Source of the DNA: Lingula anatina
Taxonomy: Eukaryota; Animalia; Brachiopoda
Direction: 5' to 3'
DNA length: 64,000 bases
Assembly (NCBI GenBank): GCA_051362555.1
Contig: CM120643.1
Location: forward strand, 15,350,644-15,414,643
The position numbers were made by a program, and so were the translations under genes. The notes below the pieces were generated by a model that was not told the origin of the DNA, ran no database searches, and saw nothing but the letters and a program-made list of their open reading frames with translations. Positions within the stretch are counted from its first letter, which is position 1. Each line of letters starts with the position of its first letter. Shown here one piece after another: positions 5,420 through 61,172 of the stretch.

Positions 5420-5432
5420 CAACAGGAATCAA

Positions 5433-8130: not shown

Positions 8131-8170
<40 letters not shown>

Positions 8171-12322: not shown

Positions 12323-12446
12323 AGTAGTCACGTTAACATAAGAAGGCTGGATCTTTTTTTTTTATGTTAACAGGAATAATTAGTGCCTAGCATGAACGAA
12401 TAGGGATTACATTACATTTGTCCTTGTTCGAGACCTCAAATTCAAG

Positions 12447-21100: not shown

Positions 21101-21994
21101 GTATCAGCGCCCTCTTTGGCCCAAGAAGAACCAAAAGAAGTGAAAGAGGCGCAGTTTCACCTACCTCCAGAACCAGAGGCTAACGCACAACTGCTAGACC
21201 TGAAAGATGAATCCGCCCTGGAGAGCGAAGTGGTGCAGCCTGACGACACACATGATGAAGAACAAAACACTTCAGTAACAACTTATGGAGAGGAGCTAGA
21301 AAGCTCCACAGATGCAGCAAAGTACAGCGAAGGAGAGACGCAAAAGTTAGCTTCCTCTGCAGTTATCCATGACCCACAGGGCGAACCCGTACCAGATGCC
21401 GCATCTCAGATGGATATGAACAACAATGAAACAGAAAATGACGGCAGTGAACACCTCATTGAGGTAAGTTTTACGTTGTATTAGCTCGAATATATATAAC
21501 TTTAAAAAGTTTCATTTTAGCTCGTCATTTCCTCATATAAAACGTTGATTGTTGATTATTACTGAAGAAGATAAAACACAATCTGCCTTTTACTGAAACA
21601 TATATTTAATAGGTAATTTGTTTTATAAATGTTCTTTAGGCTTCACTTATTTTTCTGCCCCTAGCTATAATTAGTAATTAAGGTATGGAGAAGGCCCTAC
21701 TCCCAATTTTTTTTTTTTTGAAAAAAAAAAAAAAAAAGAACCGGAAACTAATTCTAAATAAAATTGTTTTAGGAAATCAAGGAGTCCCTGCCGTCCAATG
21801 TCTCTGATGTCAACACGGATGAGACACGCGGAAAGACAGTCATCTCCGAGACATTAAACCAAACTGACAGACGTGACCTCCCGACTCCTCAGCCGACCGA
21901 GGCCAACCGCGGGGGCGGCGGTTGGTGGTCCAGAATCGGCCATGCCGCTTGGGTTGTGTTCAGATACATTTTAGAGCATCCAGAGCTTTTCTAA
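18173..21994 (+). CDS. Uncharacterised membrane protein, 729 aa, 7 exons (signal/anchor, Cys-containing helical region, TM helix, acidic disordered tail)
   Basis: Exons 18173-18255, 18497-18771, 19199-19378, 19599-20189, 20398-20571, 20799-21463, 21773-21994 join in frame (2190 nt), all GT-AG. The N-terminus is MSILRLLILLILSFACVFILHFLQ and the TM helix is GLVVVAWVVCALAQGLVVYWARRK. No family was recognised. Confidence 0.75.
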
Positions 21995-22705: not shown

Positions 22706-22975
22706 AGGTAAAGGATATTCTGCGTTAATTAAAGCCCGTACGTTTTGTTTCATATCGATGTGAAAGTGCTTGTTAACCTGTTGGAAATTTGCTTAAAACC
22801 TGTTGTTGCAAGCTTAATTTAATGCGGTTACACGACGTTAAGATATGTCATGTTTATGTATTTCACGGAAGCTTCAGAAAAATTAACGTTAATGTTTATG
22901 CGTTATTATATGGTAATTTTATCGATTTTGTCCTGTCTTGATTTGCATCTCAGTCACATGATCAATATAAACAAC

Positions 22976-36673: not shown

Positions 36674-39600
36674 ATGGAAGCCCCAGAAGATCAAAACCTG
36701 TCCTTGGAGGAAGGCATTGAGGCTGCACAGGAGGCCAGAGAGTCTGACCCAGAGGCTGAGCAGGGGGTCAGGGATGAGGAAGAGGAGGATGCAGGGAGAG
36801 AAGAGGACAGCGGGGCTGAGGATATCCAGGATGAGCAGGTAAAGAAAACCTTTGTGAAACCTGTCTTACAAAAGCAATGAAAGTGGACAGTTGGTCTGAA
36901 CTTTTAAGCCAAAACTATGGTCTACTACAGTTTAAAATAAATCCAGTGTAGGCTGTTGAATAAAGTAAGCATTTTAAAAGCAGAAACTTACATATTTTAC
37001 TTGTTGTAAAATATGGACAACATTTCCTTCAGTGTTTTTTAGATGTGTATTGTATCATCAATTCATTACTCTGTGTTTAAAGAACTAACGAAAGGTAGCA
37101 TAGAACTGTACTCTTAATTGAGATGTCTCATATTTATTTAAAGATAAGATAATGATATTATTTACATATTTTAATCCTAAAGCAACACCAAAGGCGATCA
37201 GCAGTGGTTGCAGTATTTGCATTTTTCCTGATCTTTTTAGACCAGTAAATCTCAATAATGTCCAGTCTGATACAGTGAGAAAAATCAATACAGTATGGCT
37301 TTTTCTAGTCACTAGACTAGTTATTTTGAAAATTGATGAAATTATAATTTCTGATAAACTTACATCACAATAAAAAATCCAGCTTAAGTAATTATTAATT
37401 AACAAGAAATTTTATTGATAACAATGCCCCTCCTTGTACAGCATGCTACTCCACGACACATTACCTTTCACACTACGAGTGACTCCCATAAACCTATTAT
37501 CAGAGCCCACAACCTTAACATAGTACCAGTGATCCCTTAAATTTATGTTTTTGTCTATAAACATTAGCAGTTACAGTTAAGGTATTCAATAATAAAAAAA
37601 ATCTGGATTAATTGAGGTTGAATCACATTTGATTTATTTTCTAGGCTGGCTCTGGTGCAGAAGATGATGCCTCTGATGTGGAGGGGGACCAGTTAGTTAC
37701 CTCAGAAGATAATCCAGAAGGACAAGTGCCTGTTGTGGAACAACTTCAAGATGTGAGCCAACCCCAGTCTGCTGGTCAAGGAGCAGATGGACTATATCTA
37801 CCTCCAGAAGAGAGCGTCCCTTCTCAGACTGATGATGGTAGACTGGTGTCCAGCAGTGCTGAGGCGCCTGAGACTGAAGTTGACCAGTCACATCTCCTGT
37901 TGCAAAGCGAGGCTGACCAGGCACAGCTGACTTCCCAAACTGAGGCTGACCAATCACAAGCAATGTTGCAAGTAGAACCTGATCAGTCCCAGGTCAATTT
38001 ACACACTGAAGCTGACCAATCACCAATAGCTTCAGAAATTGAGGCTGACCAGTCACGGTCAGCCTTGCAAGTCGAGGCAGATCAGAATGAAGGGGCTGCC
38101 CAGCCAGTGTTTGGGGAGGATTCCACAGACAGAGAAGCAACACGGGACAGCACTGAAGAGGTTTCTGAAACCGAGAGCACGGGTGAGGTGGATGACGCAG
38201 AAGAAAGCACACAGGACTCACAATTCACTGCAGATAGCACCAACCAGGGGATCCCTTCATATTCTGTGATTTCTGGAGTAAGTGACCCCCCTGGGTCACT
38301 CACTGGGGACTCTCAGTCCCAGTCTTTGCCATGGGAGGGTTATTTTGGTGGTGCTGCCCCTGGCTCCCACCCAGAGGAGTCTCAGTCCCAGTCTCTGACA
38401 GGGGAGGGGCTCTATGGAGAAAGAGATGCCACAGAGGATATTTCTCAGGACTCCTCAATACAGCAGGGGGACATTGAGGAGGAGGAAAGGGGTGGACTGT
38501 CTGACCAGATATGTGATAGTAATCAAAATGATTCTCAAAGTGCGATTATCAAACAGGACACTGAAAACCAGGGACAGGGAAATCCTCCAACACAGAGTGA
38601 TTATGGTATAGAAAGGTTGGGTATCAATGGAGATAGTGACAGTGCCACCCCAGGGATAAGAGATGGTGGTGGTTCCACCACAGGGATGGCCCCAGATAGT
38701 GGGTGTAATCAGGCAATCCTGTCAGAGGGTGAGGATGGAGAGGGAGAAAGCTCAGATAGCGGGGAAATTGAGGAAGAGAAAGACAGTGGTAAAATGGGGA
38801 CGGATCAGAAAAATGCCACACAGCACCAAACTGATGTAAAAGCTAAGAGGAAAGACAACCCTTTGAAACATGATTTAAATGAGGATCACGTTGAGCTGGA
38901 CTTTGAAGAAGATGTGGTGGATGTGCATGCAAGTGAGAGTGGGATGTTAGTGGATGGACAGAAGGAAGAAATGGATGACACTGGAAGAAAAGAGGAAGGT
39001 GAAGAATCGGAAGAAGAGGGAGAAGAAAAGGTATTTATTGGCAGAATTTCAGTTAGAATGTACAAGCTCTCTTTGAATGTACATAAACTTAAAAAAAACT
39101 ATTGATAATATTTTTTACTGATGTTTAAGTTTGAGTATTTTAGTAGTATTTTCTAATGTAGTATTGCTGGTAAATGGTAACTTATTGCTTAATAATATAA
39201 TGTCCTTTTTTGTCAGTGTCATTTTATTATCAATATTTTTTACACACATTGAGATTTTCACGGAATGTACCAAAAAAACAATTAATTGTTTTTATTACTG
39301 TAGCAGTAACAAGTAACCTTCATTAGTTTGGTATCTTTCAAGTGAGGTGAGGTTAAAAATCTACAGTTTATATTACGTAAAAAAAGTAATTAGAGGAAAA
39401 TCTTATGATTATCTTGCGATTATTTAATGAAACCCTGGAAAAAAGAAAAATTAATGTTGACTATGTTTCAGTAAGAAAATAAAAACTAAGAAGTTTGTTG
39501 ACTTGTTTGCAGGAAGAAGGAGAAGCAAGATCTGGAGACGAGGGTGAGATAGAGGTCAGTGCTGGATGATACATAGCGAAAAGTTCAAATGAATTCAATT

Positions 39601-42600
39601 AACTCGTCCCATTGCAGACAACTGATGCATTCAGACATGAGCTCATCAAATAGTAGAATATTTGCACTTATGAATATTATTTGATATGAACATTTCAGAT
39701 ATCACATATGGATCACAAATATTTTAAATGTAAATGTTATAGATTTAATAGATGAAAAAGGAAAATTGATAAAAAGAGAACTATTTGAGTAGATTATAGT
39801 TGATTTTTATGACGGGCAAGGGTTTCCCCAGAGAGCCATCCTGTCGCCATTTGGACAGCCACTGGCTTCAAAAGATGGCCTAAATACAAAGACAGCTGGA
39901 CAGCTTATAAAAATTTTGAGAATGACAATATATTTTAGTTGTGAATCTGTAAATAGGTGAACAAATAACAACAGATCAACATTTTAGGTTCCCTGCTCCC
40001 CAAATCCTGGTGAAACCCCTGATGCTGAACTTGTATTTTTCTGTGTTTTGCCGTGGATACTTTGATGAAAAATTTTACTTAACTCTATTAGGATGAAGAT
40101 TGTGAAGAAGGAGAAATAAAGGACCCTGATGGGAGAAAGCCATTTGTAAGGCCGATGTGTCGTTTTTTCAATAGAGGGCACTGCACATGGGGCCCTTCTT
40201 GTCGATTTCTTCACCCTGGGGTCAATGACAAAGGTGAGCAAAAAGGGTTTGTTAAATATGCAGCTAGAGTAAAGGAAACGTTTGATATTTGACCAAAATA
40301 ATATATATTATGACGTATATTTATTTATGCTATACAATAAGCTGAAAAATCAACTATCAAAAGCACTGTGTTTCATTTTTATGTACAGACACAGATGTGT
40401 CTGTACATATAGCCATCATCTGCGTCTGTCGTCGCCGTCGTCGCCGTCGCCGTGCACTTTTACCGATAACATGATAAGTGGAAAACCATTTTGCCTTTTG
40501 ATTTGAAACTTGCAGAACTGATGTATATTCATAATACGCAGGTCAAGTTCGAAAATCAGCATGATCGGGTCACTCTTAGGGAATTTATGCTGTTTTTTCA
40601 CTTTTTTCAACATATATGCAGCACTGATAACACGATAAGTGGAAAACCATTTTACCTTTTGACTTGAAACTTACCGAACTGATGAATATTCATAATACGC
40701 AGGTCAAGTTCGAAAATCAGCATGATCGGGTCACTTTTAGGGAATTTATGCAGTTTTTTCACTTGTCAGCATATATGCAGCACCGATAACACGATAAGTG
40801 GAAAACCATTTTACCTTTTGACTTGAAACTTACAGAACTGATGAATATTCATAATACGCAGGTCAAGTTTGAAAATCAGCATGATTGGGCTATTTTGAGG
40901 GAATTTATGCTGTTTTTTCCCTATTTTCAGCATAAATGCAACACTGATAACACAATATAAGAAAAACGGATTGGCCAATTGTAATTATACTCACAGGAGT
41001 GGTCAATCTTACTAAAACGCAGGTTGAGTTCGAAAATCAGCATAATCGGGCCATTATTTTAGAAGTTATACTGTTTTTTTCACATTTCCTCAGATTCAAT
41101 TCTTAAGCATGTTAACAGTCTCATTATTTAACTAATAAGATGCCCAAAAGTGTTTGTTTGATATTTCCTGCATCTTTACAACATTGTTAGTTGATTATGT
41201 AAAAAACATGGTAAACTTGTTATCATGTATTGTGTAATAAAGTGTCAAAAATGGAAATAAACTCATATCATTGCAGTTTGTCAGATTCAATCATCCACTA
41301 TGTTCAGAATCTCAGAATGGAGGAAATTGGACATTTAACACTGTTCTATTGATACTTTTCCCATTTCATCAATTTTTTTAGTTGGTCATATAAAAATGGC
41401 AGTAAAATGTTTATTTTGTTTTATGTTAAAAAAGTGTTAAAAATGGAAATAAACCCATTTCAGAACAGTGCTGTCTTGTTCAGCATATATGCAACACCGT
41501 AAACACGATAAGTGAAAAACTGTATTACATTTTGGCTTGAAACTTACAGTACTGATGAATATTCATAATACGCCGGTTAAGTTCGAAAATCAGCATGATC
41601 GGGTAATTTTTAGGGAAGTTATGCTTTTTTTTCACTTTTTTCAGCATATATGCAACACTGTAAACACGATAAGTGAAAAACTGTATTACATTTTGGTTTG
41701 AAACTTACAGAACTGATGAATATTCATAATTCGCCGGTCAAGTTCGAATATCAGCATGATTGGGTAATTTTTAGGGAAGTAATGCTTTTTTTTCACTTTT
41801 TTCAGCATATATGCAACACCGTAAACACAATATAAGAAAAACAGATTGGCCAATTGTCATTGTACTCACAGGAGTGGTCAATCTTGCTAAAATGCAGGTT
41901 GAGTTCAAAATCAGTATAATCGGGCCATTATTTTAGGAGTTATGCTGTTTTTTCACAATTCCACAGATTCAATTCTTAGGCATGTTAACAGTCTCATAAT
42001 TGAAAGTGTTTGTTTGATATTTCCTGCATCTTTACAACATTTTTAGCTGATTATGTAAAAATGGTGGTAAACTTGTTATCGTGTATTGTGTAATAAAGTG
42101 TCAAAAATGGAAATAAACTCATATCATTGCAGTTTGTCAGATGCATTCATCCTCTATGTTCAGAATCTCAGAATGGAGGAAGTTGGACATTTAACACTGT
42201 TCTATTGATACTTTTCCCATCTCATCAATTTTCTTCATTGGTCATATAAAAATGGCAGTAAGCTGTTTATTTTGTTTTATGTTAAAATAGTGTTAAAAAT
42301 GGAAATAAACCCATTTCAGAACAGTGCTGTCTTGTTTACATTTTGGCATTTTCAATATGTGACTTAAAGGACAATGTTCATGTAAAAATCCATTTCTCGA
42401 ATTTTGAAGATACAGCACTCAATCTATACACTAGAGGTATGTTTTAATCGATCCCCGCCATTTAAAAATTATAAAAACAATCTATTAGTAGAAAAAAAAG
42501 CGTTTTAGTAAACCTCACCTCAATATGCAAAAATGAAGCAACAGATCTGGGTCACGTGGTACTGTGACGACAATCACGATAAAGGTCTATGAGACTCAAC

Positions 42601-45600
42601 TGAGCTGCATGGTGCATAGTTAGGAAGTTTAGAAGTTAAGGAAAGTTGTGTTGAACGGAGTTGAGGAATTTTCGTTATGCCTCGGTGTGTTGCCGTGGGA
42701 TTCACCAAAATTGCAGCTCTTTCTTTGTCTGTGACGGTCTTCCGTGACTTACTTACTAACTTCGGTGACAATAGTTGCGATGCTCTAGATCATGGTCACC
42801 TCAGGTGGTTTAGATCATATCAAGAGCTGGTAGTCTTTCAGATTAACTATCATCAGTTGGCAAACTTACTGATTGCTGATGCATTTTAAATGCATTGTAG
42901 TTGACCAAAAGCTCGTTTACAACAAACCTGTTAATTATGCACAGCTGCAATTCCCAACCCAGGTAATAACAGGTATGAAACTAGTCTTGGTGGGCTTTCA
43001 TATTTTTCAATATATCTCATTTATTTCATGGGGTTATTTTTTTGGTATTTGTAAATGACGTTAAATATCAATACTTAAACAATTAAGTTCAAACACGGTC
43101 GCGAACATTAATAAAAGAAATTGCTCTCAGGGTATCTTGAAGCTTCCGTGGAAGAAAACGTGTTGAGGAAAAACAGGAAAAAGAGCGTTATATTAAAGAA
43201 AAAATGGGAACTGCTATAATAAAATGGTTCGTTATCCTAATTCGTTTATGCTTTGAGGATTTGTTTCTGAAGATTATTTCATCTGAAATATTAAATAATT
43301 TAAAAGATTGATTATTTTATAACTTGAAACGCAAATTCTGCGTCAGTACGCAATTTTTTTTTTGCAAATTTGTAAGCTTATAACACCGTGCTATAAAGAT
43401 CTACTCAAGAAAAAAATTTGCTTGGGTAAAATTGAGTACGGAATGAACTGGAGACACTTGGCTTGTCATTAAGTTTACACGAAAATATGTCAGGTAACTT
43501 TATACTGTCTTTGAAAGAGTAAAGATTGAAAGATAATTTTAGACAAACTTTGACGGGGGAAATACCTACAAAGAGTAATGGGCTATTTCGCCAACATCTT
43601 GTTGAACATTTTACACTGCAATTCTATTCAAATAAGCTAAGGAACTAATTGCCAAATTAATACTCTCATCACATAACAGGGGGGTAACCAGACCTGCAAA
43701 AATTGTACGCACATATTTAAAAAGATTACAAGCACATACAGCAAAATGTAGACTTACGCAAAACATGAAGGACAGTGTAATCACAGCAAATGTACCTCAT
43801 ATAGTAGCTTAATTTCCATTAATAATAAAATCATCATTTAAGTCAAAAATATTCTTGCGATTTAATAACTATTTTAATTTACCCAGAACGGTATATTTAT
43901 TTTAAAGGCGGTTAACTGAAATATAGTTTTATGATTTGTTTGTGAAAATTGCCCATGTCACCCTGTTAGTTTGGAGGTCTAAGCTGGATCAAGTCCGAGT
44001 TAAAATTCCTATGAAGTTGTGCAGGAAAAATTCTTCCTTTCTTTCTCTAGCTCCTCGATAAACCTGGTGTTCAGATTTTATCTAGTACCCCCAGGTCTAC
44101 GGGAGCTGCGCTTTGTAACTAACGCACAGGTAGATTTTTACCTGAGATAACTGGAGTAAAGCTTAGATAGAGAGTGCGTTCGATACAAGCAAGGCAAATT
44201 GAATGCCATTTAACCCTCTAATTAAGAGGTAAAGGAAGTTCCAGGTAGATGGATGATTAAGATAGGACTTGTAAAGGTAACGGGCATTGTTTACCTCAGT
44301 TTAATAAAAGTATGCAAGACGGAGTGTCAGCGGTTTAATAAAATAAATTGAATTTCACAAATAACATGGACCTCATATGCAATAATCAACATTTCCCTTA
44401 ACTCATTCAAATGCAGTGTTTTATACAACTTGGGATAACCATAATGAAATGCTTGTTAAAGAAATGACTAGACGGGAAATGGTTTTACACAGCTTCACGA
44501 GGATTTAGACCCCTCGGGTAAGAGATTTGAATGAGTATAAACTTTTATCAGACGCCAGAGAAGTCATCTTACAGGTAGACAATGCAGCTCAGTTTGACTG
44601 CTAAGCACGCTCTGTTCTCCAGTGGCTCGATTGTCGTCATTGGACCACGTGACCACGTAGCTCATTAACTCCCAGGCCGAGCAAATAGGACGTTTTTTAA
44701 AGCCAAAAATTTACCAAATGAGCTTTTAATTTGTGTATTTGGATAAAGATATCGTTAGTTGGGCATGTTTTCTGAAGAATATGTTCCGTTCAGGCCATTC
44801 TGACGGCATGAAGCAAACCCTTTAAAGTTCCATGGGCCTGAAGACTTTTGCTAGTCACATTTTCTGAATAACCATGATACTAATATTTTATAATTAAAAA
44901 TTGATGGTCATTATGCTGCAAAACATTAGGTAATCTTGCATCAAAATTTGAAGAAACCCCTATTTTGGGCACTGCTCCCATGATGACCATTTAAGGAAAA
45001 TCATGTCACTTACTGTTCTCAAACTTACAGGAAAGAAACATGGGTCTAAAATACAGCTTCAGTAGACAATGCAGTCTGTTTGGTAAATTTTTCTGGCAAT
45101 TAAACAGTTTTTTGTGAAAATTTAATTTTTTACTTATTGGCATTTCCAAGGTGTGACTTAGAACCTCCACGGGCTTGAAGACCCATGCTAGTCACATTTT
45201 CTTAAATCCATGACAGGTATAATTTATTATGAAAAATGGATGGTCATTATGCTGTAAAACATTATGTAATATTGCATCAAAATTTGAAGAAACCCCTATT
45301 TTGGGCACTGCTCCCATGATGACCATTTAAGGAAAGTCATGTCACTTACTGTTCTCAAACTTACAGGAAAGAAACATGGGACTAAAATACAGCTTCAGTA
45401 GGCAATGCAGTCTGTTTGGTAAATTTTTCTGGTAGTTAAGCAGTTTTTTTGTGAAAATGTAATTTTTCACATATTGGCATTTTCAATGTATGACTTAGAA
45501 CCTCCACGGGCTTGAAGACCCATGCTAGTCACATTTTCTGAAAATTCATGACACTTATATTTTATTATTAAAAATCGATGGTCATTATGCCGTTAAGCAT

Positions 45601-46567
45601 TATGTAATGTTGCATCAAAATAGAAGAAAACACAATTTTGGGTGCTGCTGCCTTGATGACCATTATGGGAAAACTGTGTTACTTATGACTGTCAAACTTT
45701 CAAAAAAGAAACACAGGACTAAAATGCAGCCTGAGTTGGAAAAGCAGTCTAATTGGCTTCTTTTTCTGGAAGCTATACATTTTAGTGTAATATTCATTAT
45801 CTTTTTGGCATATTCATTGTGGGACTCAGAGCTCCCATGGACATGAAGCCGAATGGTAATCATATTTTCTACATGTCCATCCTATTTATAGTCAATAAAC
45901 AAAAATTGGTGATAATTATTCTCTAATTTATTATGTAATGTTACATCAAAATTGACAACAATCTTTTTGCACTGCTACTGCAAACATTATGAAAAGAAAA
46001 CTGTGCTACTTATTATCATTTTTAACTTACAAGTACGATTTTTAGGATTGGCCTTCAGCTCATATGAGAAAACCAGCTCTATTGGATTATCATTTTTATT
46101 GAATTTATGCATTTTTTGTGAAATTTTCAATTTTCTCATTCTGGCACTTTCTAAGTATAAACTTGAACTCCGATGGGCCTGAAGCCTTATGCTTTTAATT
46201 TCGTCTGTGTTACCTGTTGTGCATAAGTTGATGTTGACTGTGCAGATAAACATAATGTATTATTGCATCAGGATTGGTAGTCTCCTATTTTGGGCATTAT
46301 GGTTTTGTGCTTTTCTTAAAGTGTGACTTATGGGCCGAAAGACCTTTGAGTGGGTCAGTCTGTAAATTACCCTTGGGTATCACTAGATGAATTTCAAAGT
46401 TATAAAGTCATTTGCCTTAATAGGCCATTAAATGAGATTACATAAAGCACACTTGTTGATATTTCCCTGTAAACTCCCAAAGGTAAAGCTCTCTGCTAGA
46501 TTAATAATAAGGAAGCAGTGATAATTATGCAGGTAAATTTTGTTTAATATTGCAAATAAGTTTTAAA

Positions 46568-46633
<66 letters not shown>

Positions 46634-49600
46634 TTGTGACATTTAGTTTTCAGGAGTAGACTTTCTTAAAGAGCACTACTTCAAAATATCTGAGATGAAA
46701 AATATCCAAATGAGTGAAGCTTAAAAAAATTGTTTTTCCATATATATTCATATATACTATTTAGTATAAACTGAAGGCATTATAAATTAAATTTTCAACC
46801 CAACTCCACTGTAAATAATGGTGTTTATCATTTGAGACACCTGTATAACTTTTTAATCTTTAAATCACTGCAATTAAGCTCATTATCCATCCCTCCCATA
46901 TAAATGCAATAAAAATTCTGTTAATAATGAGATCAAATGTGTTCCCGATTTACCTTATTACTAAATCTCCCCAAAAATACCTAGTATTTGATATATATAT
47001 ATATATATATATCAAACTGGAAGATTAAAAGTTTGAATAGCATCTTCATAGGAATTATATTTACCTCAAGCTCTGCCAAGGAGGTCATATTTTCACCCCC
47101 GTTTGTCTGTCATCCACATAACACAAAAAGTTAAGGACTGATTTTGCAGAAATTTTCAGGAACTGTCGGAAGTGGGCCAAAGAGGACAATGATTAATTTT
47201 TGGTGGTGGTCTGGAACAATAATCAATCAATTATCAATAATAATCAACAATTGCTGCCTTGGCAGAGGTCTGCACTCTCAAAGTGCTTTTCTAGCTTTGT
47301 TATGTTTTCCTTTATAATTTTTTCTCAAACACTTGCATTTGTGACTTTTAACTCTCATCTGCCTGGGGCTCTGCACATTTTCTGTATTTCCACATAAGCA
47401 GTTGTATTGTTTTTTATGTCTTTAAACATTATGTAATATTATTTTATGCACTGTCATCATTTTTCAAATATTGAGAGTTTCATAGTGTGAATTTGAACTC
47501 TCATGGTCCTGAAACTGTAATTTTATTGAAGGGGTGGACCATCTCCTGGGTCTTCCTGAAGACAGTCAGGTTATTAAGTTTATATTGACTGGTATCTATT
47601 TTTTTCTGTTGGAAGACCATCAAAATGGAGGATGGATCAACATAGATACTTTGTAATACTGTCAGAAAATATCTCTGGGTCCGCTCCTGTTATTGACCAT
47701 GTTACCTGTTGTGCAAGATTAAAATTCAGTGTTGACTGACAGTGCTATTATAAGCATTATTTATTATTGCATCAAAATTGACAAAATGACCTATTTTGCA
47801 TCTTTATTTTCTGTTTTTTTGTCTGTACATTTGACAGCTTTGCTGCCTTGTTTCACCATTATAATTAATAGTAGAAATATCAAAAGCAGTAGCAATGGTA
47901 AAATTAGGAAAAAAAGCTTGAAAACGTGCATTGTATTTGGTTGCCATTCAGTATTATTGTTTATTTGGAATCTGTTATTTTTCTTCTCTTCCAGGTAACT
48001 ACTCCCTGATAGAAAGACCAGGGTTTCACCCCCCAGGGAGGCTGGGGCAGCCTGGGGGTCAGGGACCCCGGGGACAGGAGGTATTATTGTAATATATATA
48101 TATTTTTACTTTTTGTTTGATGTATAATTCATATATATGCTACTTAAGCATAGATTTCAGATTAGTTTCTTATATGAAGTCCTGCTTAGTTCTACCATGT
48201 CTAGTTGCAAATAAAGTCATCAGTTTTTGTAAAAAAATGTTTGGTAAATTGAATTAAATACCTTTCCATGAATTATTTGATGATATTTATTATTATAATA
48301 TTTATTTACCTGTAATATGTTTAGTTGGCTTGATTTATTTTACGTCTTCTTAATATTACTGTTCTGTATCATATAGGGTAATCCAGTGGAAGAACTTCCC
48401 CCACCCCCTCCAGTGGAGGAACCTGCTACAGAGAGTGCCTGGGAAAGAGGGCTGAGGCAAGCCAAGGAGGTACAAGGACATGGGAGTTTTTGTGTATATG
48501 GGTTAAATGGGGTACCCAAAACTTTTAAGCCCATTGGTCGGTTGGACCAGCAGACCTTAGAAAACTATATGGCCAAATTTGCAATAATTGACAATAATTG
48601 ACTTTCCCAAAGATAAAATCTGTAATTTAATGGAAAAATAATCTAAAACAGCCTTTGAAATTTCTAATAGCCTGAATTGACAAGTCACTTTGAAATTTTT
48701 CCGTTGCTTCTATCCCAATTCATACAGTAACTGATTGCTTTGGACTGACATTGCAGACTGGGAAAAATATGCATCAGCTCCATCAAATATGCCATATTAC
48801 TTCCCCTACTGAACTTCAGCCCACAAAATACCGTGTATAGATATGCTTTTAAACCACAGTCTCACATGCTTGCTGTTTTAAGTGAATTAAACTGGACTGT
48901 TTGATGATTAACTTTTTACTGGCTTTAATGCAATATTACAGCACAAGTAGTTGTCACATTGCTCTAAAATATTGTATTAGGATTTAGAAGATGGTATTCC
49001 TAAAAATGTATTTTCAGAGAGAAAAGGATAACTTGAGACAACCAAATGATCAACATCTGTCACATAACTGGAACTTAAGATATTTATTGTCAGTTTTATT
49101 CTGATTCAAGCTGATGAAGAAGGCCAGTAAAAAGAAAGAACAAGAGGTGAACTTACATGAGAAGCGCCTCACACTGAGTATAGAGGATCAAGACAGGGAG
49201 ATGAATAAAGAAAACGACAGGAGAAGATTTGAGCCAGACCCGTACTATGATGACATGTAAGTAGACTTACACAGGTATGGGCAGGTTATGATGACAAATA
49301 CTAGGTATTTTTGGGGAGATTTAGTAATAAGGTAAATCGGGAACACATTTGATCTCATTATTAACAGAATTTTTATTGCATTTATATGGGAGGGATGGAT
49401 AATGAGCTTAATTGCAGTGATTTAAAGATTAAAAAGTTATACAGGTGTCTCAAATGATAAACACCATTATTTACAGTGGAGTTGGGTTGAAAATTTAATT
49501 TATAATGCCTTCAGTTTATACTAAATAGTATATATGAATATATATGGAAAAACAATTTTTTTAAGCTTCACTCATTTGGATATTTTTCATCTCAGATATT

Positions 49601-52600
49601 TTGAAGTAGTGTTCTTTAAGAAAGTCTACTCCTGAAAACTAAATGTCACAAGCAAAATTAGAAATCAGATAAAAACCTGTAATAGTGCTTAAGAAATTGT
49701 ACTACTTACTGTGGGATTTCTGTTGAAAAATTGTAGAATTTGCTGAAGCATATTGAGATTAGGTTGGTAACAATATGCAAGTGAAAAATCAACTATTTTT
49801 TTTAATCTGTAGGTTTGATGATCCTTACTATACAAAAGAACTAGACATCCATCCGTACGAGAACTTTGAAGTACGCTGGAGTCGGGAGCCTTTGCCACCA
49901 CCGCCTCAGGAATATTACCCCAGGGTACGTAATATGAAGCAAGATATCCAAGTCCTAACTTCATCTTTTTTATGTACAGACACAGATGTGTCTGTACAAA
50001 TAGCCATCATCTGCGTCTGTCGTCGCCGTCGCCGTGCACTTTTACCGATAACACGATAAGTGGAAAACCATTTTACCTTTTGACTTGAAACTTGCAGAAC
50101 TGATGAATATTCATAATACGCAGGTCAAGTTCGAAAATCAGCATGATCGGGTCACTTTTAGGGAATTTATGCAGTTTTTTCACTTTTTTCAGCATATATG
50201 CAGCACCGATAACACGATAAATGGAAAACCATTTTACCTTTTGACTTGAAACTTACAGAACTGATGAATATTCATAATACGCAGGTCAAGTTCGAAAATC
50301 AGCATGATTGGGCTATTTTGAGGGAATTTATGCTGTTTTTTCACTATTTTCAATATAAATGCAACACTGATAACACAATATTAGAAAAACGGATTGGCCA
50401 ATTGTAATTATACTCACAGGAGTGGTCAATCTTACTAAAACGCAGGTTGAGTTCGAAAATCAGCATAATCGGGCCATTATTTTAGAAGTTATACTGTTTT
50501 TTTTCACATTTCCTCAGATTCAATTCTTAAGCATGTTAACAGTCTCATAATTTAACTAATAAGATGCCTAAAAGTGTTTGTTTGATATTTCCTGCATTTT
50601 TACAACATTGTTAGTTGATTATGTAAAAAACATGGTAAACTTGTTATCATGTATTGTGTAATAAAGTGTCAAAAATGGAAATAAACTCATATCATTGCAG
50701 TTTGTCAGATTCAATCATCCACTATGTTCAGAATCTCAGAATGGAGGAAATTGGACATTTAACACTGTTCTATTGATACTTTTCCCATCTCATCAATTTT
50801 CTTCATTGGTCATATAAAAATGGCAGTAAACTGTTTATTTTGTTTTATGTTAAAATAGTGTTAAAAATGGAAATAAACCCATTTCAGAACAGTGCTGTCT
50901 TGTTTACATTTTGGCATTTTCAATATGTGACTTTAAAGTTCCATGGGTCTGAAGACTTTTGCTAGTCACATTTTCTGAATAACCATGATACTAATATTTT
51001 ATAATTAAAAATTGATGGTCATTATGCTGCAAAACATTATGTAATGTTGCATCAAAATTTGAAGAAACCCCTATTTTGGGCACTGCTCCCATGATGACCA
51101 TTTAAGGAAAATCATGTCAATTACTGTTCTCAAACTTACAGGAAAGAAACATGGGTCTAAAATACAGCTTCAGCAGACAATGCAGTCTGTTTGGTAAATT
51201 TTTCTGGCAATTAAACAGTTTTTTGTGAAAATTTAATTTTTTACTTATTGGCATTTCCAAGGTGTGACTTAGAACCTCCATGGGCTTGAAGACCCATGCT
51301 AGTCACATTTTCTTTAAATCCATGACAGGTATAATTTATTATGAAAAATGGATGGTCATTATGCTGTAAAACATTATGTAATATTGCATCAAAATTTGAA
51401 GAAACCCCTATTTTGGGCACTGCTCCCATGATGACCATTTAAGGAAAGTCATGTCACTTACTGTTCTCAAACTTACAGGAAAAAAACATGGGACTAAAAT
51501 ACAGCTTCAGTAGGCAATGCAGTCTGTTTGGTAAATTTTTCTGGTAGTTAAGCAGTTTTTTTGTGAAAATTTAATTTTTCACATATTGGCATTTTCAATG
51601 TATGACTTTGAAGTTCCATGATCCTGAAGACCTTTGCTTGTCACATTTTCTGAATATGCGTTATACTAATATTTTATAATTAAAAATTGATGGTCATTAT
51701 GCTGTTAAACATTATGTAATGTTGCATCAAAATTTGAAGAAACCCCTGTTTTGGGCACTGCTCCCATGATGACCATTTAAGGAAAATCGTGTCAATTACT
51801 GTTCTCAAACTTACAGGAAAGAAACATGGGTCTAAAATACAGCTTCAGTAGGCAATGCAGTCTGTTTGGTAAATTTTTCTGGCAATTAAACAGTTTTTTG
51901 TGAAAATGTAATTTTTCACATATTGGCATTTCCAAGGTGTGACTTAGAACCTCCACGGGCTTGAAGACCCATGCTAGTCACATTTTCTGAAAATTCATGA
52001 CACTTATATTTTATTATTAAAAATCGATGGTCATTATGCCGTTAAGCATTATGTAATGTTGCATCAAAATAGGTGAAAACACAATTTTGGGTGCTGCTGC
52101 CTTGATGACCATTATGGGAAAACTGTGTTACTTATGACTGTCAAACTTTCAAAAAAGAAACACAGGACTAAATGCAGCTTGAGTTGGAAAAGCAGTCTAA
52201 TTGGCTTCTTTTTCTGGAAGCTATACATTTTAGTGTAATATTCATTATCTTTTTGGCATATTCATTGTGGGACTCAGAGCTCCCATGGACATGAAGCCGA
52301 ATGGTAATCATATTTTCTACATGTCCATCCTATTTATAGTCAGTAAACAAAAATTGGTGATAATTATTCTTTAATTTATTATGTAATGTTACATCAAAAT
52401 TGACAACAATCTTTTTGCACTGCTACTGCAAACATTATGAAAAGAAAACTGTGCTACTTATTATAATTTTAAACTTACAAGTACGATTTTTAGGATTGGC
52501 CTTCAGCTCATATGAGAAAACCAGCTCTATTGGATTATCATTTTTATTGAATTTATGCATTTTTTGAGAAATTTTCATTTTTCTCATTCTGGCACTTTCT

Positions 52601-55600
52601 AAGTATAAACTTGAACTCCGATGGGCCTGAAGCCTTATGCTTTTAATTTCGTCTGTGTTACCTGTTGTGCATAAGTTGATGTTGACTGTGCAGTTAAACA
52701 TAATGTATTATTGCATCAGGATTGGTAGTCTCCTATTTTGGGCATTATGGTTTTGTGCTTTTCTTAAAGTGTGACTTATGGGCCTAAAGACCTTTGAGTG
52801 GGTCAGTCTGTAAATTACCCTTGGGTATCACTAGATTAATTTCAGAGTTATAAAGTCATTTGCCTTAATAGGCCATTAAATGAGATTACATAAAGCACAC
52901 TTGTTGATATTTCCCTGTAAACTCCCAAAGGTAAAGCTCTCTGCTAGATTAATAATAAGGAAGCAGTGATAATTATGCAGGTAAATTTTGTTTAATATTG
53001 CAAATAAGTTTTAAATATATATATATATCAAACTGGAAGATTAAAAGTTTGAATAGCATCTTCATTGGAATTATATTTACCTCAAGCTCTGCCAAGGAGG
53101 TCATATTTTCACCCCCGTTTGTCTGTCATCCACATAACACAAAAAGTTATGGACTGATTTTGCAGAAATTTTCAGGAACTGTCGGAAGTGGGCCAAAGAG
53201 GACAATGATTAATTTTTGGTGGTGGTCTGGAACAATAATCAATCAATTATCAATAATAATCAACAATTGCTGCCTTGGCAGAGGTCTGCACTCTCAAAGT
53301 GCTTTTCTAGCTTTGTTATGTTTTCCTTTATAATTTTTTCTCAAACACTTGCATTTGTGACTTTTAACTCTCATCTGCCTGGGGCTCTGCACATTTTCTG
53401 TATTTCCACATAAGCAGTTGTATTGTTTTTTTATGTCTTTAAACATTATGTAATATTATTTTATGCACTGTCATCATTTTTCAAATATTGAGAGTTTCAT
53501 AATGTGAATTTGAACTCTCATGGTCCTGAAACTGTAATTTTATTGAAGGGGTGGACCATCTTCTGGGTCTTCCTGAAGACAGTCAGGTTATTAAGTTTAT
53601 ATTGACTGGTATCTATTTTTTTCTGTTGGAAGACCATCAAAATGGAGGATGGATCAACATAGATACTTTGTAATACTGTCAGAAAATATCTCTGGGTCCG
53701 CTCCTGTTATTGACCATGTTACCTGTTGTGCAAGATTAAAATTCAGTGTTGACTGACATAAGCATTATTTATTATTGCATCAAAATTGACAAAATGACCT
53801 ATTTTGCATCTTTATTTGTTGTTTTTTGTCTGTACATTTGACAGCTTTGCTGCCTTGTTTAGTCACTTTGGCTCGTGATAGAGATGGAGACTCATGCTGT
53901 CAAAGTAGAAACTAACAACCCCTTTAAAAAGTTTCATAGATTGTAATTTTTCTCAACAGGTTGAATGCAGTATAAATTAGTGATTTAGTATTTTGTAGAA
54001 GTTTCCAGAAAAATGAAAGATATATAAATTTAGTTGAGTATTGTATACTTTTCAGCAACAAAAAAAGTGCATGATATTTAAATGTTTTCTTTAATGCAAG
54101 TGGAAATATGTAGCAATGAATTTAAGCAAACTTAACCAAATAACATTCATTAAAATATACTTGCACTCTGTTATTGATGTGGCTAGTGAAAGTAGGTTAG
54201 AGACAGGGAATTGTTTTAAATGTGACAAAAATTATGCTTGGAACAGTATATTCATTTTTGTTTTTAAAAAAAGTTTTTAAAAAAGTGAATTGTTTTAAAG
54301 CAGTTTGTTTTTCCTATGAGGCACACCATTTCAGCCCTTCACCACTTAACTCACGTCAACAAGTCAGCCATGTAATCAAGATCATTTTCTCATCTCTCAT
54401 GTGTAGAAACAAGTTCAATCTCTTTAGAAATGAATAACTGGTTGAACACGTTTAATATATTTGTTTCTTTTTTTTTTTCACCCATGACCTTATGCTGTGA
54501 GAAAAACACTCATTTTTAACAAAATGTTATTTTTTTTCTAAATAGGGGCATGACTACCCACCTATGAATCGTGACAGGAGAAGGGAGAGAAGGAGAAGTC
54601 CATCTCCTCACAGGTACCAATTTATTTCCTAAGATTTTCTTTCTTATTTCCTTCTGTTTTTTTCTGATTACAAGCAGAATTTACTTCTGTTTGCTTAATC
54701 TGATTATCTTCATATCATTTCATATACTGAATGAGATAAGTTAAACCTTGGTCACTGTTCACAAATTAACAATTTTTTTTTAATGGGCATTCCTGTTGTT
54801 GAGGTGAAAATTGCTGATATTTTAAAGAATTTTCATGCCGTTTTTCTTTTCCAGATGCCTTTGAATCTGTATTTTGACATTTATGTCTGTATATTTGCCA
54901 GCCTTGTCTGGTTTTACTTCTTCTTCACTGATATCTCAAAAAAATTATTCTCTTTGAATTCAGGCCAAGGGAGCACCGCAGACACAGAGAGCGTGTCCGT
55001 GAGCGCATAGAACGGGAGCCAAATCCACCACCTCAGAGAGTTTTGCCCGACAGTAAACCACCTCCAGAGACAATGGGGAACAAAAATAATAAGCCAGATG
55101 AATGGAGAGATCCTTGGATGAGGTTTGTGAATAAATGATTTACCTCAGAAAAAGAAAAAAAATGTTTTGTCAGATGATGTTTGAAAACCTATTTAAAGGA
55201 AAGATTATTTTTCATATATTTATGGTCTTTGGCCCTTGTAAAAAGACTTTTTGGTGAAAAAAGAATCTCAGTATGGACTAGATGTGGTTTTACCAGCAAG
55301 GCATGGCTGAAAACCTCTGCTGACCTAGCTCTACAAGTTTATGGCCCTGATGAATGAAACAGTCTTCCAATGCACTTGAAAATCATAGAGACTCAAGACA
55401 TTAAGATTTTAAAAAAGAACTTAAGGCTTCGTTCACATGGAATGTCTGTTTTCTAAAAATCTATTTTCTATTCGCGCTATCTTATGATCACGGTCTGTGC
55501 CCTGAATATCCTGCCGCGTAATTACTGGCAGCGCGAGCCAGTTACTTATAGTAACTTATAGTAACTGGCTCGCGCTGCCAGTAATTACGCCGCGGGATAT

Positions 55601-58600
55601 TCAGGGCACAGACGGTGATCATAAGACATACCGCAAATAGAAAATAGAATTTAGAAAATAGACATTGCATGTGAATGAAGCCTAAAACTTTGAATTTCTG
55701 AAAGTTATATTGCTGAATTGACTGGATTTTAATCTGAACTTGCACTGTATATTTTTATTAGCTTTATAATTGAGCTGTTTTAATTAATAATTTATTTTGC
55801 CCTCATAAACTCTACTCAACATTTGAACTGGACTTTAAATTAGTAAAATTTTGACCCTTCATAAAAGTACCTTGACTGATGTGATTTTTGACTTGCTGAT
55901 TTTGAAGATAGATGGAGCTCACATCAACAAATCAGATATGTGGTCAGTGCAAATAGCATGCCTCATAGGAAAAACATGACAAGTTTCTTTGGAAGTAATT
56001 TATTTATTTGTTTGAACCATCTTTAGACTATTTTCCCAACCCTATTTCACTGAACTTTTTCTCTGTTTTACCAGGTCAAAATCTCCAAAGAGAAAACCTG
56101 GGTCTCCGGAGCCTCAGTCGCGGGGAAGGAGGAGGAACAGGTCTGGGAGCTACTCATCGTATTCATCATCAAGGTTGGTGTTAGACTACATTCATGGTTT
56201 GTTTTCACTCAACTTGGGTCAGCCATCTTTTTGACTGATATCAGTGGGTTGCAGTAAATATTATGCCTTTTTTTTTAATCATGTTTCCTTGGGTTGACCT
56301 CCAGTGGTAAGCTGTTAGTTAACAGTTACCCTGCTGAGACTGGTAGTACAAAGTTAGACCACCACATCTAACATTTTTGCGCAAGAGACAATGCAAAACC
56401 CATTTTACTGTATTAGATGATGTGTTTTGGCAAGAAATACACTGGTAAGCAACCAAATGGAAGTATCTGTGGTTTAATTGTGCAGTGGGATCTCTCTGTA
56501 GACAGTATATGGCACAAAGACATTTAAATATTTGTATATTCCTCTACATAACCACAACAGTGAATGAACAACATAAAAACTCTCTGTTAGTTGAGGAAAT
56601 GGATCATATTAAAAATTAACAAAATATTTGTTCATTTGAAGTCATGTGTTTAAATTTGCAGTATTTTGCCCCACAATTTTCTGCTTTCTGTGGTGGTGGT
56701 ATAGTTTCTTTCATATCATTAAGCAAAACAATAAGGTTATTTCTTTTTGAACAGTCATTTCCAGAGGTATAGGTGTTAAATTTCATTCACTGGAATTTAA
56801 TCCTCTTCTGTTTATTTATTCATTTGTCCCAATGCAATGAAACACTGTATGAAAAAGAAACAGTTAAGCCCCCTTTTACATCCTTTTTGCCTCATGTAGT
56901 ACGGCCCTGTTTGAGAGTAAAAAAATATTCTTTACATGCCAACAACTGGCCAATCAATGACCATTCATTCTGTTACCAAGGCAATGCTTGTGCCTTTTTT
57001 CTACAACCTCAACTATGCCAGTTTCATGGTCACACAAAGGATGCAGATAGGATGTTGTCCAGTGTAAAGGGGTTTTACTGATAACCCTATTGTTGTATCA
57101 CCAACCTAGAGCTGGACATACCAAGGATCCACAATGCACTCTGGGGGGTTTATATTCCACACAAATTAAATTTTCACTGAAATTTCAACACTTTCTTCAA
57201 TCGCCAAGAGCACCATGTTCCAACCTGCTGAGCGACATAATTACAATCTATAAATTTGATTTTGATGTACTTTGATAAGAGAGAAAGAAACTGGTGAATT
57301 TTACTCTTAACAGTAAAAATTTCGAATTTGCCCACTTAAAGTTCAATTTTAAACAACTTACCATTTTGCTATTGCTCTAAAAAAAATCTGATCCATTTTC
57401 CTAAAGATGTACAAAGTGCAGCTGGTGGTTCATACCCAGGAGATAGCTCTGACCCTCTTGATTTTGTCTGATTTTTGTTCTTTTTCTGATTTTGCATGAG
57501 TGATGGGATGACCTGTGGTGCACTATTTTCTTTCAGATCTAGGTCAAGGTCATCTTCATATTCTGTCTCAAGTCGTTCATCATATAGCCGGTCATCTTCA
57601 TTTAGTTCAAGGTGGGTGACAAGGGCAAAGAACCTTTTTGCTTGGCAATTTTTAAGGCTATGGCTTTCATGGATATTCTTCACATAATCCATAAGATATT
57701 TTACCTGGGCATGAAAGATCGTATTATTTTCCTTTTATGTAGCTGGAATATCAGTTTGTTTTTCTGTTTACACAACTTTTTCCTAAGAATTGGTTGAAAA
57801 GTCTAAAGTATGTGGTAATGATTGAATGATTGAAAATATGTGGTAATGATTGAATGCTGCCATGAAATGAAATGAAGTATCCCTTTTGAATATTGCAGAA
57901 GTTCATCATATTCACGCTCTCCAACACCAAAAGGTAAAAAAGCAGCAGTGCCTGGACCCCCAACAGAGAAAAAGCCCCTGCCTGCTCCAAAACCTGGGTA
58001 ATGTTGTATAAGTTTATATATGAAATGATATATATTAACAGTAAGTTAATATAGTTTGGTGTTACTATGGATATGTGAAAAGTTGGCGTCTAATATTTCT
58101 ATGTTTGGAGATTCACCTTATATTCTTTTTATATGTGAAAATTGATAGCAACTCCAATTACCTTTAGTATTTTCTGATTAACTGTATTAACCATGTTGGT
58201 TATTGGTTTCTTGTATTTGGATGTTTTTGATCTGTGCTGTTCTCATAACTGTTCTATGTCATAATGATTTATACCCTGTCTGCAAAAGTTTGTTTCCAAG
58301 CTGACTATAATTTTCTACATTCTACCAAATAGTTTAATGGATTGTAACTGATGATTTTCAATTAGTGAGGCTCCAAAGAGTTCTGTGCAGAAGACGACAA
58401 CAAAATCTCCAGACAAGAAAGCAAAACCTCTGGTGGGCCCCACATGGGCACCCCCAGTGACACCTAGTGGTGGAACAACAACTTCTGGTTCGGCGCCATC
58501 TCAGCCACAGAAATTATTGGGACCACCACCAGGGGCCAAGACAGGACCAACAGAAAGAGGAAGGAAAAAGGAGAAAGGACCCCCGAGGTGAGTACTTGCA

Positions 58601-61172
58601 TTGCACACTGCACATCGCAGAGACTTTTCTTATAATGCTGGTATCCAACTATTATACCATTGATGGAACAATAGGATAATTGGACTTGTATTTCCCATGC
58701 AGGCTTACCTGTTTTTTCATTCACTTGGGTGCGTTCATCCTATTGTTTGAAGCGCCATCAGTGGTATAAGTCAGTTACAACTACTCATCATCAACTGTAT
58801 GAGACGTACAAGAGCAAATTATATCTTGGATTTGCCTCGATATAATTATGCTCCTGTATGTTGCATACAGTGAACGGCTCATATTGAAACTAGTACTTAA
58901 CTCTGAGTGTTCTCAAAAACTTTTAAAAAGGCACAAAAACATTCCTAAAACCTGACCTGTCAGCACTCCAGTAGATGTCAGAATCTAGAGTGCAGACCAT
59001 CACTAGGGCAAAATGTAATTGAGAAAAATACATAGACACTTGGATCCAGTTGAAATTGTAATTGCTTTTTTTCCATCCTGAATAAATGTCTAACATTAAA
59101 ATTTCTTCAAAATTTATGAAGAACTTTTTTGAATTTTTTTGTCCATAGAAAAAACAAATTAAGCAACCACTAATAACCATTAAGATAACCTCCCTCGTTT
59201 GCAGAAGCAATAACTGGTTTTACACTGGGTGGCGAATAGCTTTAAAATTAGAATTATGAAAAATTTCTTTTGTCTCAGGACTAAGAAGAAAACTCACAGT
59301 CCAAGTGGCAGTTCCTCTTATAGCAGCTCCAGCTCTTCTTCATCACGATCACGCAGTCGTAGCAGCAGTGCATCATCTGTCAGTAGTACATTTTCTAGTA
59401 GCTCAGGTGGAAGTGCCGACTCCGATAACATATACAAAGACATGGGAAAGGGGCCTAAGAAAGGTGGGGATTATTGATGAACAGTTTAGTGCTGTTCATA
59501 TAAATGCATAAAAATTGATACAGAAAGGACAGAATTATTGGAGTTGAAAACATGTCATAAGTGTTAGTTTAGATTTTGATTTAGTCTCTTGTATGATTTA
59601 TGTCAGTCATTGATCTATTTTATTTTGTTTGTAATCACTGAAATTGCCTGCATTCCTTGCCTGCTGAAAAATATTATGACCTCCAATGATTCTCACACTA
59701 GGAAAAAATAAAGATGTCACAAAGAGGCCACCACCTGGAGGGGTACCTCCAGCGCCATCTACTGGCGGTCCAGCCGGAGGACCTCCAGTGCCACCTCGGA
59801 GAGAAAAAGAGAAGAAAGACAAGTCAAAACAAATGGCCAAACCCACAACATTATCAAAAACTGGACCACCACCAGCACAGATGTCCAGTGGGGCTCAGCC
59901 TCCACCACTCCAGCCAGTTTCAGGAAGAGGTGACCGAGTGGACAGTTCAAAGACAAAGTCCAGTGTGACGTCATCAACATCTGTGGTCAAAACAGCCAAA
60001 GATCCAATGAAGATGATAGGGCAAAAGCAACAGATTAAGTTAACCCTTGTGAACAAGGTAACTTTGTAGATTGATAAAAAAGCTTATGTTAACTTATTCT
60101 TGCATTGATAAAAAAGTGAAGAAGTTGATCTTGCACATTTATGAAAGGCAAATTTATCATTGTATCTCTGTGCAAATGAAGGTAAAAGCTTTACTACTTT
60201 CCGTCATTTGGTTTGATGTCCCGCTTTCCCCTCATAAAATAGATAAATGATAAAAATAAATAATGGAATTTGATACAAATTTTGAAAATACTGATCTTTT
60301 CCATCACACATCATGTATACTGTCCTTTAGTCTTGAACATTAGAAATAATCTTTTTTTTTTCCTTTTTCAGCCAAAGGACAAGGGAGGTCTGAAACGACC
60401 AGCAGAGGGCAGTAGTGCTCCTCCTGCCAAGAAGCCCACGCCTGCCAAACCTCCTGTAAAAGCTGCCCCAATACCAAAAGGTGATATCTGTGGTCATTTA
60501 CTCTCTAGTCTCTAGATTTCATGTGGTCACTTACTTTCTAGATTTTATGTGTGGCTAAAGAAAATTAAGATAAATTTTTGTCTTTTTTCAAGATTGTCGA
60601 AACTTAATTTTCGTTCACATTATTTTTACTTTGGTGAAGTTATAGGGTGAAGTTATATAATTAATGAAACATTCTAAATGATGATTCTAATGATCTCAAG
60701 TTAAAAGGTGCAAATGATGGAAAACCTAGATCCTGATTTTCACTGAAGAGATTCATCTAAGGAACCTCTGATGCACTTGTCATGTAAATCTTCAGTAAAA
60801 ATATAATTTGTCAAGGATCTTTTAAAAATTCACAATTTTCCAAGTACCCTATTTTGAGCAGGTGAGATATTTGTGATTTCAGATTCAAAGGCATCTGTGA
60901 AAGTTCCTCCGAAAGCCCCAGAGAAACCAGCTGAGGCAAAACCCTCTATACCCAAGGTTAGCATGAAAATTGAGAGCAAGAAACCACTTCTACAGCCTCC
61001 AAAGCCTGTTAAGACGGCGTCTAGCAACAATGTGCCACAAGGAGGCTCCACTGCAGCTCCAGTGGTAGCCAAAGCATCAAAGAAGAGCACGTCTTCGAGG
61101 AGAGAAGAACTTTTGAAACAGCTAAAAGCTGTGGAAGACGCCATTGCTCGAAAACGCTCAAAGATGAATTGA
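36674..61172 (+). CDS. ZC3H18: Zinc finger CCCH domain-containing protein 18 (CBC-NEXT/exosome adaptor), ~1277 aa, 18 coding exons
   Basis: Exons 36674-36838, 37645-39030, 39513-39554, 40092-40233, 47995-48080, 48377-48469, 49111-49256, 49813-49924, 54546-54613, 54964-55122, 56075-56173, 57537-57611, 57899-57997, 58366-58587, 59279-59463, 59702-60057, 60372-60480, 60883-61172 total 3834 nt in frame. Diagnostic peptides: CRFFNRGHCTWGPSCRFLHPGVNDKGNYSLI, ESAWERGLRQAKE, DEWRDPWMRSKSP, RS-rich tracts and the C-terminal SRREELLKQLKAVEDAIARKR. Confidence 0.94.
37870..38100 (+). repeat. Coding 33-bp (11-aa) degenerate repeat, 7 copies, in the ZC3H18 N-terminal region
   Basis: ETEVDQSHLLL QSEADQAQLTS QTEADQSQAML QVEPDQSQVNL HTEADQSPIAS EIEADQSRSAL QVEADQNEGAA. 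Confidence 0.8.
42368..44821. mobile_element. Kolobok-like DNA transposon remnant nested in HINE copy 1
   Basis: TTAA on both sides (42364-42367, 44822-44825) with termini AGG...CCT. The empty site is visible in copy 2 near 50932. Subterminal inverted repeats GGTCACGTGG..TGACGACAATC / GATTGTCGTCA..CCACGTGACC are present. A decayed THAP-like start MPRCVAVG sits at 42677. Confidence 0.75.
46627..46990 (-). repeat. 364-bp inverted copy of ZC3H18 intronic sequence 49295-49658, inserted in a (TA)n tract
   Basis: Reverse-complement match by eye with one mismatch noticed. It is absent at the equivalent TA tract of HINE copy 2 (~53015-53028). Confidence 0.9.
47060..47294 (+). mobile_element. Small second-family HINE-like element nested in the large element (copy 1)
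   Basis: Subterminal inverted repeat CTCTGCCAAGG (47071) / CCTTGGCAGAG (47257), then a 3' hairpin GCACT-CTCAA-AGTGC and CTAG. Confidence 0.65.
49295..49658 (+). repeat. Partner arm of the 364-bp inverted duplication
   Basis: Reverse complement of 46627-46990. It begins 39 nt after the donor of exon 49111-49256. Confidence 0.9.
49966..53860 (+). mobile_element. Helentron/HINE non-autonomous element, copy 2
   Basis: Same termini and interior as 40376-47853. It has fewer 160-bp units, one more 337-bp unit, and lacks the Kolobok-like and 364-bp inserts. Confidence 0.8.
53076..53310 (+). mobile_element. Small nested HINE-like element (copy 2)
   Basis: Near-identical to 47060-47294. Confidence 0.65.
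55425..55682. mobile_element. Fully palindromic Tourist/PIF-Harbinger-like MITE
   Basis: TAA-GGCTTCGTTCACATG ... CATGTGAATGAAGCC-TAA. The inverted arms extend ~125 bp to the centre. Confidence 0.88.

Follow-up and report, generated by a model that had tools for sequence, protein, structure and literature searches.

A flipped copy of a nearby intron segment within a Helentron-like repeat of the ZC3H18 gene of Lingula anatina: probable birth by break repair and expected effects on splicing

The presence of two nearly identical and oppositely oriented copies of one intron segment on either side of three exons raises the question of how such a pair arose and whether it acts on the splicing of the gene that carries it. 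The pair considered here lies in the ZC3H18 gene of the brachiopod Lingula anatina, in a stretch of 64,000 nucleotides (GenBank assembly GCA_051362555.1, contig CM120643.1, positions 15,350,644 to 15,414,643; hereafter the window, numbered from its first base). The analysis indicates that the left arm of the pair is probably a flipped 364-bp copy of a nearby intron, born by repair at a (TA)n tract, and that carriers of the insert would likely form a minor 325-nt circular RNA (circRNA) at most, with mostly normal splicing.

The left arm (46627-46990, minus orientation) is the reverse complement of the right arm (49295-49658, plus orientation), with 363 of the 364 bases identical and a single mismatch at 46673, which confirms the inverted duplication reported in an initial annotation of this DNA. 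The arms are separated by a spacer of 2304 nt and their identity stops abruptly at both sides. They form the sole inverted pair of that size in the window, the next longest having arms of 67 nt, and no third copy of the 364-mer was found within the window at a word size of 7. Chance is ruled out as the source of a sequence match of this extent. The right arm is contained in the 556-nt intron 49257-49812 and begins 38 nt beyond the donor at 49256, while 1004 nt separate the left arm from the acceptor at 47995, in an upstream intron of 7761 nt; the nearby splice sites are both clear of the arms, by 38 and 154 nt. The arrangement of arms and exons given in the annotation, with the right arm close to the donor, is therefore upheld.

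The exons at 40092-40233, 47995-48080, 48377-48469, 49111-49256, 49813-49924 and onward form a single open frame on the plus strand. The upstream exon (40092-40233) encodes a CCCH zinc finger matched by PF18044, and the three bracketed exons, of 86, 93 and 146 nt, add up to 325 nt and are in frame with their neighbours; the second of them (48377-48469) encodes a conserved ESAWERGLRQAKE stretch. A protein search with the zinc-finger exon gave 13 matches among 16 candidates, of which 10 are named, all of them molluscan, and half of those named (5/10) are labelled ZC3H18-like by NCBI. All four homologues that were compared align with the joined exon model (44-54% identity), and their conserved C-terminal helix maps near 61050-61169 with E-values down to 7e-15. 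A single CCCH finger, followed by a conserved helix block and a conserved C-terminal helix, is the organisation found here, and on this sequence homology the gene is assigned to ZC3H18; the gene name proposed in the annotation, with its PF18044 finger and ZC3H18-like homologues, holds. Pfam has no family for bracketed exons 2 and 3, the two that were scanned, and a search of solved structures with exon 3 and with the query P0010 gave no matches. The partner-binding sites of human ZC3H18 are placed at residues 125-131, around 813-820 and 921-953 (PMC12873606). Upstream of the zinc finger, 37646-39031 is a candidate for a very long exon (about 1.39 kb) which, as judged from its sequence, would encode the acidic low-complexity N-terminal region of ZC3H18 and carries a short 33-bp internal repeat.

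Reads from four of nine RNA runs, drawn from three studies, were mapped on 47860-49960, with 6-25% of each run sampled. The mapped reads numbered 19, 38, 406 and 25 per run (total 488), three of the runs thus being of low depth; joints were listed from 3 reads per run. The three bracketed exons and their total of 325 nt are confirmed by joints in all four runs: 113 reads join 47995-48080 to the next exon, 111 join 48377-48469 to 49111 and 96 join 49111-49256 to 49813 (total 320), and another 58 reads, in three of the four runs, carry the end of the zinc-finger exon before 47995. Read depth is confined to exons and, in the three stranded runs, comes from the plus strand transcript only. An inversion of the 2.3-kb loop was considered and rejected, as the exons stand on the plus strand and are spliced in order.

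The question of which arm is new is answered by the flanks of the two arms and by an empty site. The insert occupies the TA site of one copy of a long repeat (copy 1), where about 30 TA units (46567-46628) are followed by the 364-bp arm and then by 11 more units. The left tract has 2 nt (AT) in common with the end of the arm, and the right junction is a perfect 30-nt palindrome, TTTG(AT)11CAAA, at 46987-47016. The CAAA that follows the tract belongs natively to the repeat and coincides with the opening four bases of the source. The TTTG that precedes the tract ends the arm and is the complement of those four bases; the chance of this 4-nt coincidence is about 0.7-0.9%, a figure for a match spotted post hoc. 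In a second copy of the repeat (copy 2) the corresponding site is empty and consists of (AT)7 (53015-53028), the filled site being 432 bases longer in a pairwise alignment. Among the two copies of the 364-mer in the window, only the left arm is flanked by TA tracts. The 364-mer has no terminal inverted repeat (4/10 and 11/30 terminal matches), and the right arm shows neither a target duplication of 2-11 nt nor TA flanks; by its sequence, it is ordinary intron without transposon ends. Since the right arm is ordinary intron and the site in the sister repeat is empty, the left arm is taken to be the derived, inserted inverted copy. The empty site is a paralogue and not an allele; loss from copy 2 instead of gain in copy 1 is formally possible and less parsimonious. 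The features of a templated insertion are found together, namely the 363/364 match to a template, absence at the paralogous site and junction microhomology (CAAA, by fold-back, and AT). The initial annotation had overlooked the insertion of the left arm in the TA tract of the repeat and the empty site within the window, which explain the pair as a probable product of repair. Elsewhere in the window, one member of a set of repeated segments contains a (TA)29 tract (4551-4608) that its relatives near 9930 and 16170 lack; TA tracts thus expand or appear in a copy-specific manner at other places of the window as well.

The host of the insert is a composite repeat that occupies both introns adjoining a block of four ZC3H18 exons. 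Copy 1 (40382-47853, plus strand) holds the insert, and copy 2 (49973-53860) lies in the next intron in the same orientation, with blocks 95-98% identical to copy 1; around the TA site, 17 mismatches are present in 1697 aligned bases. The two copies have in common a 5' hairpin, a 3' stem-loop, T-rich ends, a short microsatellite and central tandem arrays of 161 bp and 336/337 bp (336 bp in copy 1); together with a T-rich target and a lack of coding capacity, these are traits expected of the non-autonomous Helentrons known as HINE or DINE-1. Their subterminal inverted repeat measures 10 bp, where 11-15 bp would be expected. In its sequence the host repeat therefore resembles a Helentron-like element of the non-autonomous, HINE-like type. 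Copy 1 also contains a nested element of 2454 bp (42368-44821) that is flanked by TTAA at either end, starts with AG, stops with CT and has imperfect terminal repeats; its site is empty in copy 2 and it has no frame above 74 aa. This nested element resembles a non-autonomous Kolobok element. The likeness of the host repeat to published HINE/DINE-1 elements extends to subterminal inverted repeats, 5' hairpin, 3' stem-loop, microsatellite, central arrays and T-rich ends (PMC4067079), whereas its inverted repeat, of 10 bp at 24 nt from the 3' end, differs from the 12-15 bp at 38-60 nt described for mite HINEs in the same paper. As the two near-identical copies stand in direct orientation around four ZC3H18 exons, recombination between them would be expected to delete 47995-49924.

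A possible course of events begins with the TA tract, which may have formed a hairpin or cruciform and then broken or stalled. A strand with TTTG(AT)n at its end would have folded back on the self-complementary tract and added CAAA, the CAAA would have annealed at the source at 49295 and 364 nt would have been copied, after which the copied strand may have rejoined the tract via the shared AT. On such a course the pair would be a by-product and not an evolved switch. TA repeats are described as forming cruciforms that are cleaved, and as break hotspots that undergo repair by Pol theta and microhomology-mediated end joining with templated duplications (PMC13645644). In yeast, fold-back combined with template switching at microhomologies yields inverted templated insertions, mostly of 5-34 bp (PMC11724301). 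The insert resembles the templated break insertions of these two reports, attributed to microhomology-mediated break-induced replication, Pol theta end joining and fold-back, in its local template, inverted orientation, short microhomology and TA break site; it differs in that it comes from the assembled genome of an animal, not from a break that was induced or arose in a tumour, and measures 364 bp. The filler-DNA model of Helitron capture likewise explains the internal uptake of host DNA through break repair (PMC6544945). As in that model, host DNA is found here inside a non-autonomous rolling-circle-like element with short homology at the junctions; in contrast to the captures described there, a span of 7 kb contains the filled copy, the empty copy and the source, and a TA tract can be identified as the break site. 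The filled element shows no sign of having moved again within the window.

The annotation's claim of a recent origin for the pair is borne out by the single mismatch in 364 bases, a divergence of 0.27% (95% interval 0.007-1.5%), although this does not differ significantly from the divergence between the repeat copies (P=0.23). In DNA runs of two other studies, 0.39-0.46 of the sampled words of 47860-49960 are present, implying an allelic divergence of up to about 2.5-3%, a figure inflated by gaps in contigs. The same search listed no RNA run with this sequence, which counts as evidence neither way. The divergence of the arms is below this upper estimate, and the insert allele is probably younger than typical alleles, not fixed and polymorphic. 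In each RNA run, between 1 and 7 exonic sites depart from the window sequence in all, or almost all, of the reads (fewest in run X14, with one site and 3 reads), so that the sampled animals probably lack the haplotype of the window. Editing of the exons was considered as a source of such differences and rejected: the 14 of 28 difference rows at allele-like frequency were checked and 13 of them are synonymous, and the exonic A>G rows look allelic, with 7 of 8 synonymous. The remaining 14 rows reach the listing threshold in run X11 only, with 3-6 reads each.

The annotation had further proposed a circRNA, exon-skipping or editing switch, and this is not supported so far. Neither the 49256-to-47995 back-splice nor the 40233-to-49813 skip is listed in any of the four runs at the threshold of 3 reads, in samples that are probably from non-carriers, of low depth in three runs and with two of the four libraries poly(A)-selected, a step that loses circles. 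In run X11, none of the 81 reads entering 49813 comes from the skip; 73 are joints and the other 8 are loose ends matching the normal exon. Intron depth is zero in all four runs, including over the right arm, and neither editing of the arms nor carrier status can therefore be read from these runs. As far as these four samples go, the gene does not in general produce the circle or the skip; carriers are outside the scope of this statement.

Several points weigh against this reading of a left arm born by repair and giving at most a minor circle. The insert is known from the assembly sequence alone, which keeps an assembly artefact in play as a rival, and the copy count of the 364-mer covers the 64-kb window alone. 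The left junction shares only 2 nt, and the yeast fold-back inversions, mostly of 5-34 bp (PMC11724301), are much shorter than 364 bp. The arms are not significantly less diverged than the repeat copies, gene conversion could mask age, and the four RNA runs, from probable non-carriers, show no circle or skip. If the insert were an artefact of assembly or library preparation, a fold-back chimera at the TA tract would have caused a local segment to enter the consensus two times. Both junctions do lie in low-complexity TA within a repeated element and the arms are almost identical; however, the sequence leaves and re-enters the same tract, for which two switches would be needed, the sequence on either side runs collinear with the sister copy, a single base distinguishes the arms and the junction carries structured microhomology, and an artefact is regarded as unlikely.

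The 364-mer could also be a small TA-targeting transposon of the MuTAnT type, each arm being an independent insertion. TA tracts on both sides, as at the left arm, are a signature of such elements (PMC4486113), and the limitation of the copy count to the window leaves some room for this explanation; the lack of terminal inverted repeats, of a target duplication and of TA flanks at the right arm, together with only two copies in 64 kb, makes it quite improbable. Capture during local rolling-circle transposition of the repeat, instead of later repair, would fit the position of the source, which adjoins the 5' end of copy 2 (about 315 nt upstream of its start), and the divergence of about 1% between the repeat copies near the site. 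Yet end-bypass, as the model is described (PMC6544945), does not yield an internal and inverted capture such as this one, and the copies differ in array structure and are hence not simply parent and daughter, so that this course appears very improbable. Birth of the left arm by repair at the TA tract is thus retained as the probable explanation.

With regard to function, the RNA duplex predicted for the 364-bp pair has a free energy of about -603 kcal/mol, as against -46 and -63 kcal/mol for the single arms, and the arms would be predicted to pair in the pre-mRNA of carriers and so to close a loop that holds the three exons. In carriers, A-to-I editing of the arms is judged somewhat more likely than not, while the prospect of a detectable circle would fall slightly short of even and skipping above a level of 10% would be unlikely; mostly normal mRNA is expected, perhaps with a minor circle. 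The 325-nt circle is predicted to contain a 112-codon frame running from 49247 across its junction. Skipping of the 325-nt block would, in agreement with the frame arithmetic of the annotation, lead to a stop at 49842 in the downstream exon (49813-49924). With this early stop and later exon junctions, the skip product would likely undergo nonsense-mediated decay. The insert brings a new poly(A) signal (AATAAA, 46908), which is not notable as one of 14 in that intron, and a crude motif scan for a cryptic exon in the insert revealed no strong donor or acceptor. A second candidate for double-stranded RNA within the same ZC3H18 pre-mRNA is a self-complementary, MITE-like element of 266 nt in a later intron (55421-55686; 88%, with inner arms of 67 nt at 96%).

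These expectations may be set against known systems. Repeats of about 300 nt or more are reported to favour co-transcriptional back-splicing, with good circularisation for exons of at least 300 nt (PMC4617980); reverse-complementary matches (RCMs) favour both back-splicing and skipping in Caenorhabditis elegans (PMC8330042). The arrangement expected of an RCM-driven circRNA is found at this locus, with a 364-bp pair in both flanking introns and an exon block of 325 nt. It resembles the Drosophila laccase2/DNAREP1_DM pair (PMC4617980) and the C. elegans RCMs (PMC8330042) in that exons totalling 300 nt or more stand between complementary segments of introns. Unlike the arms of laccase2, which are two transposon copies (69-75%), the arms here are copies of a unique intron segment (99.7%) (PMC4617980), and in contrast to both systems one arm is 1 kb away and no circle was seen in the four runs from probable non-carriers (PMC4617980, PMC8330042). 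For Alu pairs, symmetry around the exon is seemingly not crucial (PMC13019027, PMC13019944), and inverted pairs flank constitutive exons too (PMC13019027). The loop-out skipping caused by AluY/Alu in TBXT shares with this locus the creation of an inverted pair around coding exons by one new insertion (PMC10901737, PMC13019027, PMC13019944). The TBXT AluY is, however, fixed, with skipping and a phenotype shown (PMC10901737), whereas the ZC3H18 insert is probably polymorphic and spans three exons, out of frame, with a predicted effect. A large effect is less expected because 1004 nt lie between the left arm and its acceptor, the nearby splice sites are outside the arms and inverted pairs also flank constitutive exons.

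It may nevertheless be asked whether the pair is a working switch, carriers making abundant circRNA and a frameshifted skip product that lowers or truncates ZC3H18. The long, near-perfect duplex, the right arm 38 nt from the donor, the 7761-nt upstream intron and the 325-nt circle would all suit such a role, for which precedents exist in the back-splicing and skipping driven by reverse-complementary matches in C. elegans (PMC8330042), in the TBXT exon skipping produced by a single new Alu insertion (PMC10901737) and in the dominant-negative action of truncated human ZC3H18 (PMC13476778). Against this stand the four runs without a listed back-splice and the 0/81 skip count in X11, evidence that is weak as the animals are probably non-carriers, together with the distance of the left arm, the likely decay of the skip product and no sign of conservation. 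A working switch is accordingly considered improbable. The same doubt applies to the fuller scenario in which filler-DNA capture at a Helentron-type TA hairpin created a circRNA and exon-skipping switch in ZC3H18, itself a gene that degrades transposon RNA, with carriers making the 325-nt circle and a truncated zinc-finger product. A role as a regulatory switch is unsupported, and it is plausible that carriers form a minor circRNA.

Among the top-ranked matches of the literature searches, none describes this locus. Each ingredient is already known, and the locus is a tidy further example, useful mainly as a natural test allele; at present it is one allele with predicted effects only. If the insert is real and polymorphic, comparison of carriers with non-carriers within one species would test directly whether one new, perfect inverted repeat suffices to start circRNA formation, skipping or editing at an endogenous animal locus, and if a switch born by capture proved true, the allele would be a natural experiment in the birth of circRNAs. 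With the filled site, the empty site and the source all inside 7 kb, the locus also provides a clean case for the filler-DNA route by which rolling-circle elements capture sequence, a mechanism described as unsettled (PMC6544945).

Outside ZC3H18, a unit of 5-7 kb is repeated in tandem about three times in the region 1-17000, the copies having diverged (blocks of 70-90% identity), and is probably a small gene family; two frames scanned in it gave no Pfam match. Three long open frames follow on the plus strand at 19568-20308, 20735-21481 and 22823-23290 (247, 249 and 156 aa), also with no Pfam match, and a 35-bp tandem array of about 8-10 copies is present at 29024-29382.

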